Source: Acutalibacteraceae bacterium (GTDB lineage Bacteria; Bacillota; Clostridia; Oscillospirales; Acutalibacteraceae). Taken from it: 64,000 bases of DNA. A model generated the notes under the pieces. The model had not been told where the DNA came from, searched no databases, and worked only from the letters and a program-made list of their open reading frames with translations. Every line of letters starts with the position of its first letter. Positions within the stretch are counted from its first letter, which is position 1. A program made the translations under genes and the position numbers. Positions 1,523 to 33,554 of the stretch are shown here, piece after piece. Location: NCBI GenBank assembly GCA_045128715.1, contig JBGVRU010000017.1, positions 18,909 to 82,908 on the forward strand, read 5' to 3'.

Positions 1523-3280
1523 ATGCACAAACTTAAAAAATCTTTTTCTTTATGTTTAGTGTTGCTTATAACGCTCACTTCAATATTCAACGGTGTTAAT
1601 TTAAATGTTTCGGCTTCTACTGTCACCACTGCTTATATAGAGGGTTCAAATATTAATGTAAGAGTAGCTCCCTCTAAAACAGATACTATTATTGAAAAGA
1701 TTTCATACACAACTGCCACTGTTCTAGAAACGGTAAATGACGGCACCTGGCTAAAAATTACTTATCATAACGGTATTGAGCAAATAACAGGATATATTTT
1801 TTATGATTCATCCTATATCAGAGTGGTAACTTATAATCCTGATGCCGATTTTGAAACCAAGCTGTTGGCTTTTCCAGAAAGCTATCGTGACGCTTTAAGA
1901 GGTCTAAAGGCAATATATAAAAACTGGGAATTTATTCCCGACCCCGTAACCATTACCTTTGCTGAGGCTGTGGCTTTAGAATCGGTTAATATGCGTAAGC
2001 AGGTGAGTTTTAGCTCACAACCTGTATCATGGCGTTCTATGGGTAGCGGTGCTTATGATTGGAATAAAGGTGAATGGGTAGTAACAAACGGCGGCTGGAC
2101 AGGTGCTTCAAGAGAAATTACCGCCTATTATATGGATCCTCGCAATTTTCTTAATACTACAGAAATTTATCAGTTTTTACAGCAGGGTTATGACCCTTCT
2201 TATCAAAATGAAGAGGGTGTTAAAAAGATAATAGCCGGCACTTTTATGGAAGTTAATTACAGCGATCCTAATGATATTGTCTACGGTGGCTCCTATGCCA
2301 AGGTTATTATGGAAGCTGCAAAGCAGGCGGGGGTAAGCCCTTATATATTAGCTTCTAAAATAAGGCAGGAAATCGGTGTTTCGGTTACCAATATGGTATC
2401 GGGTACATACTCCGGTTATGAGGGATATTACAATTTCTTTAATATCGGCGCTTCGGGAGGCGATTCGGGTACTGTTTTGATAAACGGATTGTCGCGTGCT
2501 AAATCAGAGGGATGGGATACACGCTCTAAGGCTATAATAGGCGGTGCGAAGTTTCTTTCTAATAACTATATCTCAAGGGGACAGGACACATATTATTATC
2601 AGGATTTTAATGTTCATAAGCCTAATGAGTTATGGCATCAATATGCTCAGGCAATTCACGATGCAAATTCTAAGGGTAAGCTTATGGCGGATTCTTATAT
2701 AAACGAAACCGATTTTGCACTCACTTTTAAAATACCTGTCTATACTGCAATGCCTGAATCTGTATCTCCGTTGCCGGTTTCTAATTCCAGTAAAAATAAT
2801 TATTATTTTGAAAATATTTCTGTTTCAGGCCTTACACCGTCATTTTCAATTTTTACCTATAATTACGATATGCATATTTCTGGTGACACCACGGTATATG
2901 TAAAGCCTGTAAATGGAGCTTCTTATGTAGGAGAGGGCAGTTACCAAATTAAAAATGGCAATAACACCGTTTCTCTAAAGGTTAAATCCGAAACAGGCTA
3001 TATCACAGATTATGTTTTGAATATTGATTCCTCTGTAGACTGTACTTTAACCGTAAGCTCAGGTACAGCGCCTATCCCCACGGTAAAGCGTGGCGACACA
3101 AACGGTGATGGAGCAATCACTTTAAGTGACCTTGCAAATATAAGACTTCATCTTTTAGGCAAGTTTACCCTGAGCGGTGATAATGCGTATGCAGCTGATA
3201 CAAATAAGGATAATCAGATTACATTAAGCGATTTGGCAAATGTGCGTTTACATTTGTTGGGATTATTTACAATTTCTTAG
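1523..3280 (+). CDS. secreted SH3b + GH73-type N-acetylglucosaminidase (peptidoglycan hydrolase) + cadherin-like beta-sandwich + C-terminal type I dockerin
   Basis: Signal peptide MHKLKKSFSLCLVLLITLTSIF...VSA. SH3b-like segment YIEGSNINVRVAPSK...WLKITY. Glucosaminidase-like segment YAKVIMEAAKQAGVSPYILASKIRQEIG...YYNFFNIGA. Duplicated Ca-binding dockerin DTNGDGAITLSDLANIRLHLLG / DTNKDNQITLSDLANVRLHLLG. Confidence 0.75.
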   Translation: MHKLKKSFSLCLVLLITLTSIFNGVNLNVSASTVTTAYIEGSNINVRVAPSKTDTIIEKISYTTATVLETVNDGTWLKITYHNGIEQITGYIFYDSSYIRVVTYNPDADFETKLLAFPESYRDALRGLKAIYKNWEFIPDPVTITFAEAVALESVNMRKQVSFSSQPVSWRSMGSGAYDWNKGEWVVTNGGWTGASREITAYYMDPRNFLNTTEIYQFLQQGYDPSYQNEEGVKKIIAGTFMEVNYSDPNDIVYGGSYAKVIMEAAKQAGVSPYILASKIRQEIGVSVTNMVSGTYSGYEGYYNFFNIGASGGDSGTVLINGLSRAKSEGWDTRSKAIIGGAKFLSNNYISRGQDTYYYQDFNVHKPNELWHQYAQAIHDANSKGKLMADSYINETDFALTFKIPVYTAMPESVSPLPVSNSSKNNYYFENISVSGLTPSFSIFTYNYDMHISGDTTVYVKPVNGASYVGEGSYQIKNGNNTVSLKVKSETGYITDYVLNIDSSVDCTLTVSSGTAPIPTVKRGDTNGDGAITLSDLANIRLHLLGKFTLSGDNAYAADTNKDNQITLSDLANVRLHLLGLFTIS

Positions 3281-3298
3281 TTAAGGGAGATTAAGTAT

Positions 3299-4843
3299 AT
3301 GAAAAAGATTTTAAAAACTGCTGTTGGATTAATTCTCAGTATTATAACTTTAACTTCTGTTTTAATAATAAATACTTCTGCGGCAGGTACTATTATTTCT
3401 TTCAACAAAAAATCTTTGACAGTTGGCGATACTGTTACCGTTACCGTTACTCTTGATGCCGGTGAAGCAATGTATTCGGCAGGTTGTGTGATAAATTATG
3501 ATAATAACGTAATTAACTATACATCAGGCAATGCTGTAGGTAATGCGGGTTCACTTAAAATTGTTGAGTCACCCTCTGGCGAAACTAAGGTTTCTTATTC
3601 TTTAACCTTTACTGCCGTTGCTGCTGGCAGCTCAGTTATATCTGTGGCGGACTGTAATTACGATACACTTGGTGCTAACGGTGCAGCATCTAAGGGCCTT
3701 TCCGGTGCATCTGCTACTTTAACCGTAAACAATGTCGCACTTTCTTCAAATGCTAATTTAAGCGCATTATCTTTAAGTGCAGGAACTCTTTCACCACGCT
3801 TTTCTGCTTCAAGAACAAGCTATACCGTTGCTGTTAAAAACTCTGTAACCGAATGTAAGATTTATGCTACTGCGGCTGACAGCGGTGCTAAGGTTGAGGT
3901 TAGCGGAGATGCTACACTTAAAATAGGTAAAAACATCCGCACTGTTACCGTTACCGCTCCAAGCGGCGCACAAAAAGTTTACACAATAACAATCAACCGT
4001 AGCGAAACTGATGAAGTGGTATCTTTAGAGGAAACTCCGACAGAGCCCACTGAAAACAAGCTTGAAACTTTAATAGAGGGTGTAACATATACTGTTGCTA
4101 CCGATATTTCCGCTGTGCCATTGTTTAAAGGCTTTACTGCGGCTACTGCACAGTACAACTCTCAGGATGTTGCTGTTGCTACCGATGCATATAATAATTA
4201 TAAGCTTTATTACTTAAAGGCAACCGACAGCGATATACTTGTTCCATTTACTTATGATGAAGAAAATAAGCTTTTCACAAAGCTTCTTTACTTTACTCAG
4301 GGTGAAAACACATATATTTATGCAGATATTCCTGAAGATAAGACCGTTAGCGATGGCTTTTACATAACTTCTGCCACAATCGGCGGAAATGAAGTTAAGT
4401 GCTTTGCAAGTAATGATTCTTCCTCTAGCGACTTCTATTATTTATACTGCTTTATAGACGGACGTTACGGTTTTTACCGTTATGACAGCCGTGAAAACGT
4501 AATTCAGCGTTATCCCGAATTAGAATTAGTAGATGTTGAGTTGGTAACAGATGATGAAAAGTCGGACAATATTTTCGTGCGATTTGCTTCTCTTACCACA
4601 AACGCTAAGCTTATTGTTATATCAATTATTTTGATTGTTATTTTCGCCATTGTGCTTGTTATTTTACTTATAATTAAATTTGTAAAGCGTAAGGGATCGG
4701 ATGTATATGACAATGACCAAGAACTACTTGGCGACAATGCATTCGATAACATTTCTTTCGGTAGCTTTTCAGTGAATGACAATGAAGAGGCTGACAGCGC
4801 CGAATCGGATACCGAAATTGTAAGCGAAGAAGCGGAAAACTAA
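3299..4843 (+). CDS. cell-surface cohesin-like + cadherin-like domain protein with C-terminal transmembrane anchor and acidic tail
   Basis: Signal peptide. Cohesin-like module LTVGDTVTVTVTLDAGEAMYSAGCVINYDNNVINYTSG...FTAVAAGSSVISV. Cadherin-like module NANLSALSLSAGTLSPRFSASRTSYTVAV...YTITINR. TM helix LIVISIILIVIFAIVLVILLII, then a D/E-rich tail. Confidence 0.55.
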   Translation: MKKILKTAVGLILSIITLTSVLIINTSAAGTIISFNKKSLTVGDTVTVTVTLDAGEAMYSAGCVINYDNNVINYTSGNAVGNAGSLKIVESPSGETKVSYSLTFTAVAAGSSVISVADCNYDTLGANGAASKGLSGASATLTVNNVALSSNANLSALSLSAGTLSPRFSASRTSYTVAVKNSVTECKIYATAADSGAKVEVSGDATLKIGKNIRTVTVTAPSGAQKVYTITINRSETDEVVSLEETPTEPTENKLETLIEGVTYTVATDISAVPLFKGFTAATAQYNSQDVAVATDAYNNYKLYYLKATDSDILVPFTYDEENKLFTKLLYFTQGENTYIYADIPEDKTVSDGFYITSATIGGNEVKCFASNDSSSSDFYYLYCFIDGRYGFYRYDSRENVIQRYPELELVDVELVTDDEKSDNIFVRFASLTTNAKLIVISIILIVIFAIVLVILLIIKFVKRKGSDVYDNDQELLGDNAFDNISFGSFSVNDNEEADSAESDTEIVSEEAEN

Positions 4844-24383: not shown

Positions 24384-24428
24384 AAAAAGGGGCTGTCTCA
24401 CTAAGAAAAAGTGAGGCAGCCCCTTTTT
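24384..24428. terminator. strong bidirectional hairpin; on the minus strand it directly follows the partial tRNA-Lys 3'-end copy
   Basis: AAAAAGGGGCTGTCTCAC / GTGAGGCAGCCCCTTTTT, an 18-bp stem with one mismatch and U-runs on both strands. Confidence 0.7.
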
Positions 24429-24447
24429 CTGGTGATCCATCGGGGAT
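24426..24447 (-). repeat. 22-nt exact direct repeat of the tRNA-Lys 3' end plus its downstream junction (second copy at 24639-24660)
   Basis: TTTCTGGTGATCCATCGGGGAT occurs at both positions. The copy at 24639-24660 spans the acceptor/T-stem 3' end of the intact tRNA-Lys. Confidence 0.85.
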
Positions 24448-24604: not shown

Positions 24605-24640
24605 AAAAAACCTGAAACAACCAAAAGGCCATTTCAGGTT
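24605..24640 (-). terminator. rho-independent terminator after tRNA-Lys
   Basis: Minus-strand AACCTGAAA / TTTCAGGTT stem followed by TTTTTT. Confidence 0.7.
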
Positions 24641-24642
24641 TC

Positions 24643-24718
24643 TGGTGATCCATCGGGGATTCGAACCCCGGACACCTTGATTAAAAGTCAAGTGCTCTGC
24701 CAACTGAGCTAATGAATC
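24643..24718 (-). tRNA. tRNA-Lys (anticodon UUU), CCA encoded
   Basis: Reverse complement reads GATTCAT-TA-GCTCAGTTGGCAGAGC-A-CTTGA-CTTTTAA-TCAAG-GTGTC-CGGGG-TTCGAAT-CCCCG-ATGGATC-A-CCA. Confidence 0.9.
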
Positions 24719-32514: not shown

Positions 32515-32730
32515 CATGAGATACATACACATATATGTTTACTCCCACAGTTTTAAGTGATATTGTGCCGATGGCTCAGTGATATTTTTACTTCGTGAAA
32601 GTGATATTATATTCGCCCTAAAACTCACGAAGCGAATATGACTTTTTTGTAATATCACTGTGAAGCAATATAACTCGTATTTGGCGCATATAACTGAAAA
32701 ACCTACAAGTCGAAACTTGTCGGTTTTTTG
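32515..32730 (+). ncRNA. candidate structured non-coding RNA/element (AGTGATATT repeats, pseudoknot-capable core, own terminator)
   Basis: No ORF longer than 14 aa. AGTGATATT at 32556, 32578 and 32600, with an inverted copy at 32651-32659. Helices CTTCGTGA(32591-98)/TCACGAAG(32625-32) and ATATTCGC(32609-16)/GCGAATAT(32632-39) interleave. Terminator at 32701-32729. Strand and ends are uncertain. Confidence 0.35.
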
Positions 32731-32766
32731 AAAAGGGTGTACGAATTCGATGCCCTTTTATTTTTT
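32731..32766. terminator. second hairpin (AAAAGGG/CCCTTTT with a CGAATTCG loop) between convergent units
   Basis: 7-bp stem followed by a T-run on the plus strand. On the minus strand it lies downstream of the TIGR04076-like gene. Confidence 0.5.
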
Positions 32767-32821
32767 CACCTATGTGTTCGAACCCCTACATATTTTAAGA
32801 TAGTGTTTGATGAATAAATTT

Positions 32822-33153
32822 TCAGTCTTTTGGTCTGGGACCATTGGGCAGACGGTTTCCATTTTCATCACGGTTAATGGGAGTTGCTTTGAGATGAAAT
32901 TGTATACATCCATCAGCACAAGGAATATTCATTTCATATTTTTCTTTTTCTCCTCTATATGTAAAGTCACCACCACATCGAATGACTTCACACCATGTGT
33001 ATACTTTTATCATTGTTTTAGGACACATTCCAGCAGGACATTCATAGGAAAAAACAAATTTGTCTCCTTTTTCCAAACCGAGCCTACAATGTCCTGCTTT
33101 TCCCGATATTCGGTTAATTCAAATTGCCAATCTTCAGTACACCATTTTTGCAA
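32822..33153 (-). pseudogene. TIGR04076-family small Cys-rich protein, apparently frameshifted
   Basis: RBS GGAGGA plus TTG 33153 gives (M)QKWCTEDWQFELTEY..., which runs out of family-like sequence. The C-terminal 84 aa (track ORF 32822-33076: GDKFVFSYECPAGMCPKTM...RCGGDF) continue upstream in another frame as INRISGKAGHCRLGLEKGDKF, back to a TGA at 33119-33121. A 1-nt frame change near 33110-33121 is needed to join the two parts. Confidence 0.55.
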
Positions 33154-33190
33154 ATAAATATCCTCCGTCAAATTTTTATTCGTTGGTTAA

Positions 33191-33219
33191 ATTATACCAT
33201 AAGTTATATTTATAATCAA
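33191..33219 (-). promoter_or_regulatory. promoter of the TIGR04076-like gene (TTGATT-17-TATAAT, extended -10 TGg)
   Basis: Reverse complement reads TTGATT ataaatataacttatgg TATAAT. It abuts the hairpin/12-mer array. Confidence 0.6.
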
Positions 33220-33220
33220 C

Positions 33221-33437
33221 GCTTTGCGAAGCAAAGCACATTAATTATCACGGCGAAGCCGTGTATATCATCAATTCCATAAGGAATTGCATATCATCAA
33301 AGCGGAACGCTTTGTATATCATCATTGCAAAAGAATTTTTGATGCACACCTGAAGGTGTGATGAGATACAAGGGCGGTAAAACCGCCCTTGATGATATAC
33401 AGCCTAACGGCTGATGATATACCATTGCTTTCGCAAT
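33221..33437. repeat. array of 8-9 short perfect hairpins of differing sequence, alternating with a conserved 12-mer (3 direct TGTATATCATCA-type, 3 inverted TGATGATATACA-type)
   Basis: 12-mers at 33262-73, 33288-99 and 33313-24 (direct) and at 33359-70, 33390-401 and 33412-23 (inverted). Hairpins at 33221-37, 33251-61, 33274-87, 33300-12, 33345-60, 33371-89, 33402-11 and 33424-37. Confidence 0.8.
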
Positions 33438-33441
33438 GGAT

Positions 33442-33477
33442 AAAAAAATTCGACTTGTCGAAACAAGTCGAATTTTT
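33442..33477 (-). terminator. rho-independent terminator after tRNA-Arg(UCU)
   Basis: AAATTCGACTTGT / ACAAGTCGAATTT stem flanked by A/T runs, immediately 3' of the tRNA. Confidence 0.75.
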
Positions 33478-33554
33478 TGGCACGCTGAAAGGGACTCGAA
33501 CCCCCGACCCTCTGCTTAGAAGGCAGATGCTCTATCCAGCTGAGCTATCAGCGC
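33478..33554 (-). tRNA. tRNA-Arg (anticodon UCU), CCA encoded
   Basis: Reverse complement reads GCGCTGA-TA-GCTCAGCTGGATAGAGC-A-TCTGC-CTTCTAA-GCAGA-GGGTC-GGGGG-TTCGAGT-CCCTT-TCAGCGT-G-CCA. Confidence 0.9.

Follow-up and report, generated by a model that had tools for sequence, protein, structure and literature searches.

Organisation of the array in the window

The window analysed here is a stretch of 64,000 nucleotides from an Acutalibacteraceae bacterium (GenBank assembly GCA_045128715.1, contig JBGVRU010000017.1, positions 18,909 to 82,908 of the forward strand), and its subject is an intergenic array in which short hairpins alternate with a conserved 12-mer beside a tRNA-Arg(UCU) gene. The array is one copy of an apparently undescribed modular DNA repeat family of uncultured Oscillospirales-type Clostridia and some of their phages. 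The 12-mer, with the consensus TGYATATCATCA, is present in six copies, three direct and three inverted, between perfect hairpins at 33221–33441, and the element including its outer unit and terminal part spans 33214–33442. The components of the array and its immediate flanks are listed below in window coordinates.

32822–33171, minus strand: downstream gene, weakly TIGR04076-like and frameshifted (open reading frames (ORFs) 33010–33171 and 32822–33076)
33191–33219, minus strand: outward sigma-70-type promoter, TTGATT-17-TATAAT with TG-n before TATAAT, its -35 box lying inside the element end
33214–33246, plus strand: extra outer unit of AATCAA, the hairpin GCTTTGC-GAA-GCAAAGC and a degenerate 12-mer (sequence inspection)
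33247–33261, plus strand: ATCA and hairpin hp0, CGGC-GAA-GCCG, containing GCGAAGC (helix 1 of the covariation analysis)
33262–33273, plus strand: 12-mer #1, TGTATATCATCA (word match)
33274–33287, plus strand: hairpin hp1, ATTCC-ATAA-GGAAT, the commonest module type (ATTCC..GGAAT; helix 2)
33288–33299, plus strand: 12-mer #2, TGCATATCATCA, with the C at position 3 that is typical of this slot
33300–33312, plus strand: hairpin hp2, AAGCG-GAA-CGCTT (helices 3 and 4)
33313–33324, plus strand: 12-mer #3, TGTATATCATCA (word match)
33325–33344, no strand assigned: centre, TTGCAAAAG and an A/T-rich spacer; the 9-mer complements the loop and 3' arm of hp5 at 33428–33438
33345–33360, minus strand: central hairpin hpX, CACACC-TGAA-GGTGTG, overlapping the TG of 12-mer #4 (covariation, helix 5)
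33359–33370, minus strand: 12-mer #4, TGATGAGATACA, in which G at position 7 mispairs with A of #3 in 20/42 homologues
33371–33389, minus strand: hairpin hp3, AGGGCGG-TAAAA-CCGCCCT (inverted repeat; covariation, helix 6)
33390–33401, minus strand: 12-mer #5, TGATGATATACA (word match)
33402–33411, minus strand: hairpin hp4, GCC-TAAC-GGC, with a minus-strand loop GTTA (covariation, helix 7)
33412–33423, minus strand: 12-mer #6, TGATGATATACC as written on the plus strand (word match)
33424–33442, minus strand: terminal hairpin hp5, ATTGC-TTTC-GCAAT, and GGATA (a partial 12-mer), with a minus-strand loop GAAA (helix 8)
33443–33478, no strand assigned: bidirectional intrinsic terminator of an A-run, a 16-bp perfect inverted repeat and a T-run (inverted-repeat search)
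33478–33554, minus strand: tRNA-Arg(UCU) gene (ARAGORN; Rfam tRNA 65.9 bits), at whose 3' end the element begins

An earlier note on this DNA had listed eight hairpins separated by three direct and three inverted copies of a linker, and the parts were recovered where it had placed them. The hairpins lie at 33221–33237, 33251–33261, 33274–33287, 33300–33312, 33345–33360, 33371–33389, 33402–33411 and 33424–33437, and all eight are perfectly paired. On the plus strand the 12-mers starting at 33262 and 33313 are TGTATATCATCA and the one at 33288 is TGCATATCATCA, while the reverse complements start at 33359, 33390 and 33412. When up to one mismatch was allowed the 12-mer was matched six times against an expectation of 0.66, and none of 100 shuffles reached six. 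The count of three plus three holds for these good copies, but a degenerate seventh, ACATTAATTATCA (33238–33250), sits between the leftmost hairpin at 33221–33237 and the next one, so that the window copy has the order '++++---'. Both strands fold far more strongly than shuffled sequence, with z scores of -9.5 to -12.8.

The two ends of the element have features of their own. The AATCAA of the outer unit is the reverse complement of the -35 box TTGATT, and the AATCA preceding the outermost hairpin is conserved across the family. At the tRNA-proximal end the stem of hp5 is lengthened by CC/GG flanks and covaries between two main types, ATTGC and AAGCC. The adjoining 12-mer #6 ends in CC throughout the family, which places G at position 1 of the sense reading in 55/55 arrays.

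Size, hosts and layout of the family

Species-representative genomes were scanned for two 12-mers 10–30 nt apart, an array being defined as at least three 12-mers. The search of other genomes that the earlier note had proposed did yield homologues: among the 120 stretches listed, at least 111 genome loci carry arrays, amounting to at least 122 arrays, and nine stretches were attributable to chance where about a dozen were expected. Ten stretches contain two or three arrays each. Nearly all hosts are metagenome-assembled genomes from the guts of humans and animals, with the label Clostridia, Acutalibacteraceae, Oscillospiraceae or Eubacteriales. The only match listed from a cultured isolate, Yanshouia hominis (L030; loci are cited by L numbers), lies in a coding region and was discarded as chance, and the viral hits other than L122, L126, L131, L137, L143, L145 and L148 were mostly chance matches or coding repeats. 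No match to the array was obtained by BLAST against isolate phage and plasmid collections. A full-text literature search with the 12-mer in DNA and RNA spelling returned unrelated primers alone, and keyword searches returned general papers on repetitive extragenic palindrome (REP) elements and HUH enzymes with nothing on the array family.

The layout is best read in the direction of the tRNA gene, which is the minus strand of the window. The tRNA gene and the bidirectional terminator are followed by TTTTTTTATCC, a hairpin, GGTATATCATCA, a hairpin, TGTATATCATCA, a hairpin, TGTATCTCATCA, a hairpin, and TGTAT with an A-rich spacer; next come a 9-mer complementary to the first hairpin, three repeats of TGATGATATRCA plus a hairpin, and finally TTGATT. 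The common form has three or four units on one strand and then three on the other. At least 59 arrays have exactly the order '+++---' with a fixed polarity, and the reverse order was never seen among the matches listed. All-direct arrays of four to nine or more units also occur, some with block duplications of period three. The start-to-start spacing of the 12-mers varies from 19 to more than 31 bp. The basic unit is a short perfect hairpin of free sequence placed between the half-sites ...ATCATCA and TGYAT..., and because every hairpin sits between these half-sites the 12-mer TGYATATCATCA is common to neighbouring units.

Conservation of hairpins and 12-mers

The 12-mers are near-invariant, and what variation they have is confined to position 3 (T/C) and position 6 (A/C) and depends on the slot. 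The hairpins are diverse, with 138 distinct sequences across 220 slots and repertoires in the two halves that do not overlap. Among 272 distinct segments between 12-mers, 197 are perfect Watson-Crick hairpins. Covariation was measured in an alignment of 42 homologues, in which the hairpin pairs were paired in 93.5% of cases compared with 75.8% in shuffles, a value that none of 500 shuffles reached, and 26/39 hairpin pairs had changed on both sides. The original observation that pairing is preserved while the stem sequence varies is thus borne out across the family. The CA/TG ends of the linkers had also been proposed to extend each stem, and the flanking 12-mer bases do covary across the hairpin: the base that closes one 12-mer forms A-T with the base that opens the following one in 203 cases, G-C in 8, C-G in 4 and other combinations in 5. 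Since the stems take in the CA/TG ends, the part of the linker that is truly single-stranded is 8 nt, (U/C)AUAUCAU. G-T wobble is nearly absent from the stems on either strand.

The 12-mers themselves gave a different result. The earlier note had suggested that a transcript could fold as a rod, with the three direct 12-mers pairing in nested order with the three inverted ones. Folding of both strands confirmed that this nested pairing is the minimum-free-energy structure, an outcome that follows trivially when a single conserved word is present in either orientation. These nested pairs do not covary, being paired in 90.9% of cases compared with 91.2% in shuffles, and 475/500 shuffles did at least as well. 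Systematic mispairs were also found among the 42 homologues, at the outer end of #1/#6 in 42/42, at position 3 of #2/#5 in 24/42 and at position 6 of #3/#4 in 20/42. A further pairing is better conserved: the 9-mer after #3 complements the terminal hairpin at its loop and 3' arm, with at least 8 nt perfect in 46/55 arrays, in at least six sequence variants, and is paired in 99.3% of cases against 77.6% in shuffles. This pairing is topologically incompatible (knotted) with the rod, and the existence of all-direct arrays means that a unit needs no antisense partner. The proposed rod of nested 12-bp helices was rejected on these grounds.

A T-run, read as a terminator, lies directly upstream of the array in the tRNA direction in 82/87 cases, and a sigma-70-type promoter (at least 10/12 match) leads out of 36/84 arrays and into 3/84, so that read-through transcripts alone could cover the array. 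The outward promoters build on the TTGATT at the element end, a partial 12-mer that also serves as their -35 box, with a spacer that varies by locus. A dedicated plus-strand RNA promoter in the window was considered and dismissed, its apparent -10 box being the reverse complement of the outward promoter. At gathering scores Rfam returned tRNAs alone for the window and tRNA, tmRNA and rRNA alone for 20 related loci. In a permissive Rfam search around the array the best non-tRNA matches had E values no better than 0.004 and scored far below gathering, and matches resembling C/D-box RNAs were caused by the UGAUGA in the array. The array is no stand-alone gene for a structured RNA, and mutual pairing is not what the 12-mers are conserved for. 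Judged from sequence comparison, the array behaves like a spreading intergenic DNA element.

Strand specificity and loop type

The loops differ between strands. On the strand that reads TGYATATCATCA, here called the sense strand, GNA was found in 46 cases and TNC in 2, and GNNA in 45 and TNNC in 1. Which strand is sense changes between the halves, so that the left and right halves are sense on opposite strands. Triloops (103) outnumber tetraloops (77), the pair closing the loop is C-G in 161/197 hairpins, and GNRA makes up 23/45 of the GNNA loops, with GTCA and GTTA also common. The stable loops of RNA are the GNRA and UNCG tetraloops, while d(cGNAg) triloops, such as GCGAAGC, and d(cGNNAg) tetraloops form exceptionally stable DNA mini-hairpins. 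GCGAAGC has two occurrences in the window. Because the loops match the stable DNA mini-hairpin types, single-stranded DNA is the form in which the array is probably read.

Association with stable-RNA genes and signs of insertion

A same-strand tRNA or tmRNA gene lies upstream of 52/82 oriented arrays with enough upstream sequence, and 16 kinds of gene are represented. In 41 of those 52 (41/88 oriented arrays) the first 12-mer begins 50–60 nt past the 3' end of the stable-RNA gene. Only five arrays among the matches listed have a tRNA gene in another arrangement, and other arrays come after a tmRNA gene overlooked by ARAGORN or at the close of an rRNA operon. At six loci (L008, L027, L055, L096, L102 and L118) 17–41 nt of the cognate tRNA or tmRNA 3' end are repeated directly 70–1400 nt beyond the array, often with a terminator of their own next to the repeat. 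Direct repeats of this kind are the typical mark of small DNA insertions into the 3' ends of tRNA genes. The viral contig L137 has a 45-nt tRNA 3' half next to its array.

Further side observations were made at tRNA ends. T-arm-like fragments (..GTTCGAA..) trail many arrays, as in the window at 32762–32795 (minus strand) and in L019, L040, L063, L071, L080, L096 and L110. Some, at L040, L096 and L008, resemble the T-arm of the tmRNA or tRNA beside them, whose 3' end they may represent in decayed form; others are non-cognate. Elsewhere in the window the 3' end of tRNA-Lys(UUU) is present as an exact 21-nt direct repeat at 24426–24446 and 24639–24659 (minus strand) around an insert of about 190 nt, which contains its own terminator and a T-arm-like piece, GGGGATTCGAACCCTGAGAGGGC, and no 12-mer array. 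A similar piece follows the L081 array. The tRNA-Lys(UUU) insert thus looks like a further case, within this genome, of a small insertion at the 3' end of a tRNA gene.

Copies were compared within and between genomes. Two arrays on one contig share 2–4 of four hairpin modules on the three contigs of this kind, whereas 7.6% of pairs from other loci share two. L055 and L094 look orthologous, since their left flanks are near-identical (45 nt shown), yet they have unrelated hairpins in three slots. Exact matches to proteins of the window came from its own strain alone, and independent assemblies of that strain stop at or beside the array. Downstream of 41 relatives of the flanking RlmL gene neither the tRNA gene nor the array was present, synteny having been lost.

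Flanking modules and downstream genes

The terminator hairpin beside the window array is of a type, TTCGACAAGTTTCGACTTGTCGAA, that also adjoins arrays in L019, L046, L055, L096 and L110. It is found after different tRNA and tmRNA genes in different genomes, with a second window copy at 32706–32722, and because it recurs at different genes and genomes the terminator itself behaves as a repeated module.

On the other side of the array the outward promoter is predicted to drive the downstream TIGR04076-like gene. The position of this promoter and its -35 box agrees with the earlier description of the locus, but the assignment to TIGR04076 was less secure, as the repaired protein scores 29 bits against a cut-off of 33. 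The gene is split by a frameshift near 33090. The identical frameshift is present in L150 and L193, which are assemblies from other samples. L110, the closest relative among the matches listed, is 87% identical over the array, terminator and tRNA end. A stretch of 450 bp with the promoter and the TIGR04076-like gene is missing from L110, which runs straight into the module that lies beyond that gene in the window. As the gene is missing at the equivalent place in L110, it is probably variable cargo.

The module beyond the gene was noted separately. It is about 200 nt long, non-coding (32600–32795), and also present in L110, L043, L065, L120, L068 and L058; in L110 it stands directly after the array. 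A second motif, AGTGATATT, is associated with this module and occurs at 32556–32659 in three direct copies and one inverted copy, with 5 in the window against 0.86 expected.

The first downstream genes at other loci are diverse and include PF05635, helix-turn-helix (HTH), sigma-70 and transporter genes among others. The sole recurrent family is PF05635/TIGR02436, a four-helix-bundle protein ('23S rRNA intervening sequence', Avd-like), which accounts for 10/62 first genes. Members were found at L033, L055, L064, L084, L086, L088, L094 and L102, behind the outward promoter of the array and after different stable-RNA genes, and an identical cassette of array, promoter and PF05635 gene follows different tRNA and tmRNA genes. 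The PF05635 family is known elsewhere from inside stable-RNA genes. The largest ORF cluster around the arrays was rejected, as it consisted of spurious ORFs spanning the array itself. A crude motif screen found no tyrosine recombinase downstream of arrays.

Copies in phages

A phage lineage with a P22-like portal carries arrays of four to five units between a pair of genes, RusA and a small Cys-rich gene, and the small terminase gene terS (L122, L126, L131 and L197). In L131 and L197 the array is antisense relative to terS. L199, whose TerS is 77% identical to that of L131, has at least six sense units right before the terS ribosome-binding site with no promoter between, and L198, with a TerS 68% identical to that of L131, has no array. 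As antisense, sense and absent states are found in related phages, the array is dispensable and independent of orientation at terS. This argues against both a pac site and an orientation-dependent RNA function, and for insertion-like behaviour. A pac or cos site for the small terminase was rejected because relatives have the opposite orientation or no array.

The small Cys-rich ORF between RusA and terS (L131 10300–10560, minus strand; L197 2627–2854) encodes about 75 amino acids, has no Pfam match, and is followed at once by the array and a perfect 11-bp hairpin. On the viral-labelled contig L148, where the array is at the contig start, putative radical-SAM-like and three-Cys-motif partner-like genes lie next to an XRE regulator at 1798–3761 (minus strand), as judged by eye from N-terminal sequences.

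Comparison with known repeat systems

The earlier note could name no class that fitted the array, and neither Rfam nor the literature searched by sequence supplied one. No known family fits, and the closest working likeness is to REP elements with their relatives, the bacterial interspersed mosaic elements (BIMEs) and REPINs, together with modular miniature inverted-repeat transposable elements (MITEs) such as BOX and Correia. REP, BIME and REPIN sequences are likewise short dispersed intergenic palindromes in mosaics of alternating orientation with conserved linkers, and a genome has many of them, close to terminators at the 3' ends of genes; the array copies are known from metagenome-assembled genomes alone. 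REP recognition is thought to involve a hairpin plus a conserved flanking single-stranded tag, which resembles the array unit, and the halves of REPIN-type doublets are likewise sense on opposite strands. The main difference is in what is conserved. The palindromes of REPs are conserved in sequence within a genome and carry a GTAG/CGTC tag, whereas the array has palindromes of free sequence and a 12-nt linker that does not vary between bacterial families; no REP tag was found, the array flanks being ATCATCA and TGYAT around the 138 distinct hairpins. In addition no RAYT gene was seen near arrays, in stretches of 8 kb or less, and REPs do not share the tight association with the 3' ends of tRNA and tmRNA genes.

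BOX elements of pneumococci and Correia elements of Neisseria resemble the array in being modular, non-autonomous and gene-free, with a variable number of units, strong folding and inverted ends, and in supplying parts of outward promoters as well as terminators. Their conserved modules are 45–150 bp long with defined terminal inverted repeats, while the array units are about 25 bp with 12 nt conserved. In the array the 12-mers of the two halves are inverted relative to each other, but the outermost ends differ (AATCA-hairpin compared with hairpin-GGATAAAAA) and the halves draw on separate hairpin repertoires. Correia elements duplicate a TA at their target, and at the array ends no short duplication is evident.

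Recombination sites share other properties with the array. In attC sites the structure is kept while the sequence varies save for the core boxes R''/L''-L'/R', the dyad is imperfect with fixed mispairs and the reading is apparently strand-specific; single promoter-proximal cassettes, sometimes in tandem, and the absence of a recombinase from the cassette are further common points. The arrays differ in having no GTTRRRY core, integron integrase or attI, their conserved words being TGYATATCATCA and its complement. Their cassettes stand at tRNA 3' ends with 17–41-nt direct repeats, and the array is upstream of the gene and carries the promoter. The attP arms of lambda (P/P') and of islands that integrate at tRNA genes likewise have both direct and inverted sites of 10–12 bp, no more than about 200 bp away from a tRNA 3'-end core; their distance to the core is fixed, and the tRNA 3' end is duplicated. 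Against this likeness, the arrays have no integrase gene, and copies also occur off tRNA genes and, in phages, in either orientation. Hairpin spacers are not known from attP arms.

CRISPR arrays also alternate a conserved word regularly with variable segments and show variable unit numbers and block duplications, but their repeats are 23–50 nt compared with 12 nt here, and their spacers are unique and not palindromic. The 'spacers' of the present arrays are hairpins of 7–19 nt from a recurring pool, and the arrays are half inverted, with no leader and no cas or recurrent neighbouring genes. The repeats of Type III toxin-antitoxin systems (ToxI-like) were excluded, since those arrays are tandem runs of near-identical units, each about 36 nt long, with the endoribonuclease toxin gene directly behind them, whereas the array units differ in sequence and the downstream genes are diverse. 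Plasmid or phage iterons were excluded by the unphased spacing of 19 to more than 31 bp and by the lack of a recurrent initiator gene.

Interpretation

The reading placed first is that of a modular mobile repeat of the REP/BIME or MITE kind, whose hairpin and linker are read on single-stranded DNA by a putative protein; it is offered tentatively, with a probability of roughly 0.45. The invariant linker would be the recognition site of a sequence-specific protein acting in trans, which may read hairpin and linker on single-stranded DNA in the manner of HUH/RAYT-type nucleases or structure-specific recombinases. Units and whole arrays would spread, duplicate and be reshuffled between copies. They would arrive with small insertions at stable-RNA genes, forming the end of the insertion nearest the tRNA, and would bring a terminator and a promoter for whichever gene follows. 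The earlier note had named two alternatives to its rod, protein-binding sites close to a promoter and single-stranded hairpins for a nuclease or transposase; both fit better than the rod, although neither is proven.

Several points weigh against this reading. Every copy comes from metagenome-assembled genomes, which gives no copy number per genome. No transposase, HUH nuclease or integrase was found near arrays, and all-against-all clustering of about 1000 flanking ORFs gave no recurrent protein family within 2.5 kb. No target-site duplication was evident at the array ends and no empty site was found, while the tRNA 3'-end direct repeats are detectable in only about 6/44 loci. The array of L137 is on the far side of the tRNA 3' half, so the array could be a native tRNA flank. 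The preference for DNA-type loops is argued from hairpin thermodynamics, and an RNA-level insulating role may apply, as read-through from either side meets sense units first.

This last point leads to a rival that we consider unlikely but deserving of attention, in which the array is a bidirectional RNA-level insulator kept by the host to shield the next promoter from a very active stable-RNA gene. Escaped RNA polymerase would meet three sense units first, each a GC-rich hairpin followed by UGUAUAUCAUCA, and read-through would be stopped or destabilised by weak intrinsic termination or by a factor, for example Rho, that loads on the C-containing, G-poor linkers. The position of the arrays is well suited to such a role, as they are always between a terminator and an outward promoter, the dyad design puts sense units first from both directions, the genes they accompany are those with the heaviest transcription (tRNA and tmRNA genes and rRNA operon ends), and the terminators are bidirectional. 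The details of the sequence are less so. The conservation of the linker far exceeds the needs of a U-rich tract or a Rho site, and UGUAUAU would make a weak U-tract. Triloops are in the majority, and GNRA accounts for only half of the GNNA loops. Copies within one genome resemble each other. The phage copies also disagree with it, L199 having its sense units directly before the promoterless terS ribosome-binding site and L131 and L197 the opposite orientation.

A recombination-site architecture is judged rather improbable. The 12-mers would here be attP-like arm or accessory sites, or the array an attC-like site folded from single-stranded DNA, for a recombinase encoded elsewhere that inserts cassettes of terminator, array, promoter and gene at tRNA and tmRNA 3' ends. 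The fixed distance and orientation to 16 kinds of stable-RNA gene, the direct repeats of 17–41 nt around array and cargo at six loci, the 45-nt tRNA half of L137, the tandem arrays on one contig and the PF05635 cassette after different tRNA and tmRNA genes would all be accommodated, and the position-specific mispairs of the 12-mers recall the extrahelical bases of attC. However, no recombinase gene was found near any array, most loci have no direct repeat, the site spacing runs from 19 to more than 31 bp, and copies at terS in phages and all-direct arrays are situated away from tRNA genes. A simple two-arm model also does not predict the non-overlapping hairpin repertoires of the halves.

The mobile-repeat and recombination-site readings overlap in mechanism. 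A further reading, unlikely but given a real chance, is a new cassette system in which a chromosomal enzyme would read strand-specific DNA mini-hairpins with their invariant linker of 8–12 nt, folded from single-stranded DNA, and insert, shuffle and amplify promoter-bearing single-gene cassettes. The targets would be the 3' ends of tRNA, tmRNA and rRNA operons as well as phage genomes, and the system would be integron- or REPIN-like with a site grammar of its own. The PF05635 (Avd-like) protein could be an accessory of such a system.

Other explanations fared worse. A duplex operator or iteron-like array, in which a transcription factor bound to 12-bp sites upstream of the -35 box controls the outward promoter, is very unlikely. 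The nearest inverted 12-mer is one hairpin (about 11–13 bp) from the conserved TTGATT and a good promoter is present in 36/84 arrays, but more than half have no promoter, the phage copies are promoterless there, the downstream genes are unrelated and the spacing is unphased; moreover, perfect palindromes and strand-specific loops have no role in a duplex operator. Still less probable is the stand-alone non-coding RNA first proposed, a rod in which four-way junctions link three 12-bp helices: the nested fold has the minimum free energy on both strands (z scores of -9.5 to -11) and the hairpins covary, but the 12-mer helices show systematic mispairs in place of covariation, an inward promoter is present in just 3/84 arrays with a terminator directly upstream on the other strand, and all-direct arrays, the incompatible covarying pairing and the lack of an Rfam match all disagree with it. 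An invertible switch, using the inverted repeat of 9–11 bp (33323–33333 and 33428–33438) as crossover to flip '+++---' to all-direct, is scarcely credible: the repeat covaries between loci and inversion, as reasoned from the sequence, would exactly restore a full hairpin and a regular seven-unit direct array, but the flipped state was seen in none of about 100 assembled arrays beside tRNA genes (assemblies, not reads), the repeat differs in sequence between copies in one genome (L086 and L090), and no invertase gene is nearby.

Significance

If the mobile-repeat reading is true, a repeat of reversed grammar, with a short invariant linker and hairpins free in sequence, is dispersed in a major group of Clostridia from gut and rumen. 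Neither annotation pipelines nor RNA family libraries recognise the array family. It marks the 3' flanks of stable-RNA genes, donates terminators and promoters, breaks metagenome assemblies and occurs in phages. Finding the putative protein that reads single-stranded DNA could reveal a new mechanism of mobilisation or recombination, and such a reader could become a tool that recognises a 12-nt word beside any hairpin. On a conservative reading the family would still serve well as a marker of plastic genomes and of small tRNA-gene insertions in hard-to-culture organisms.

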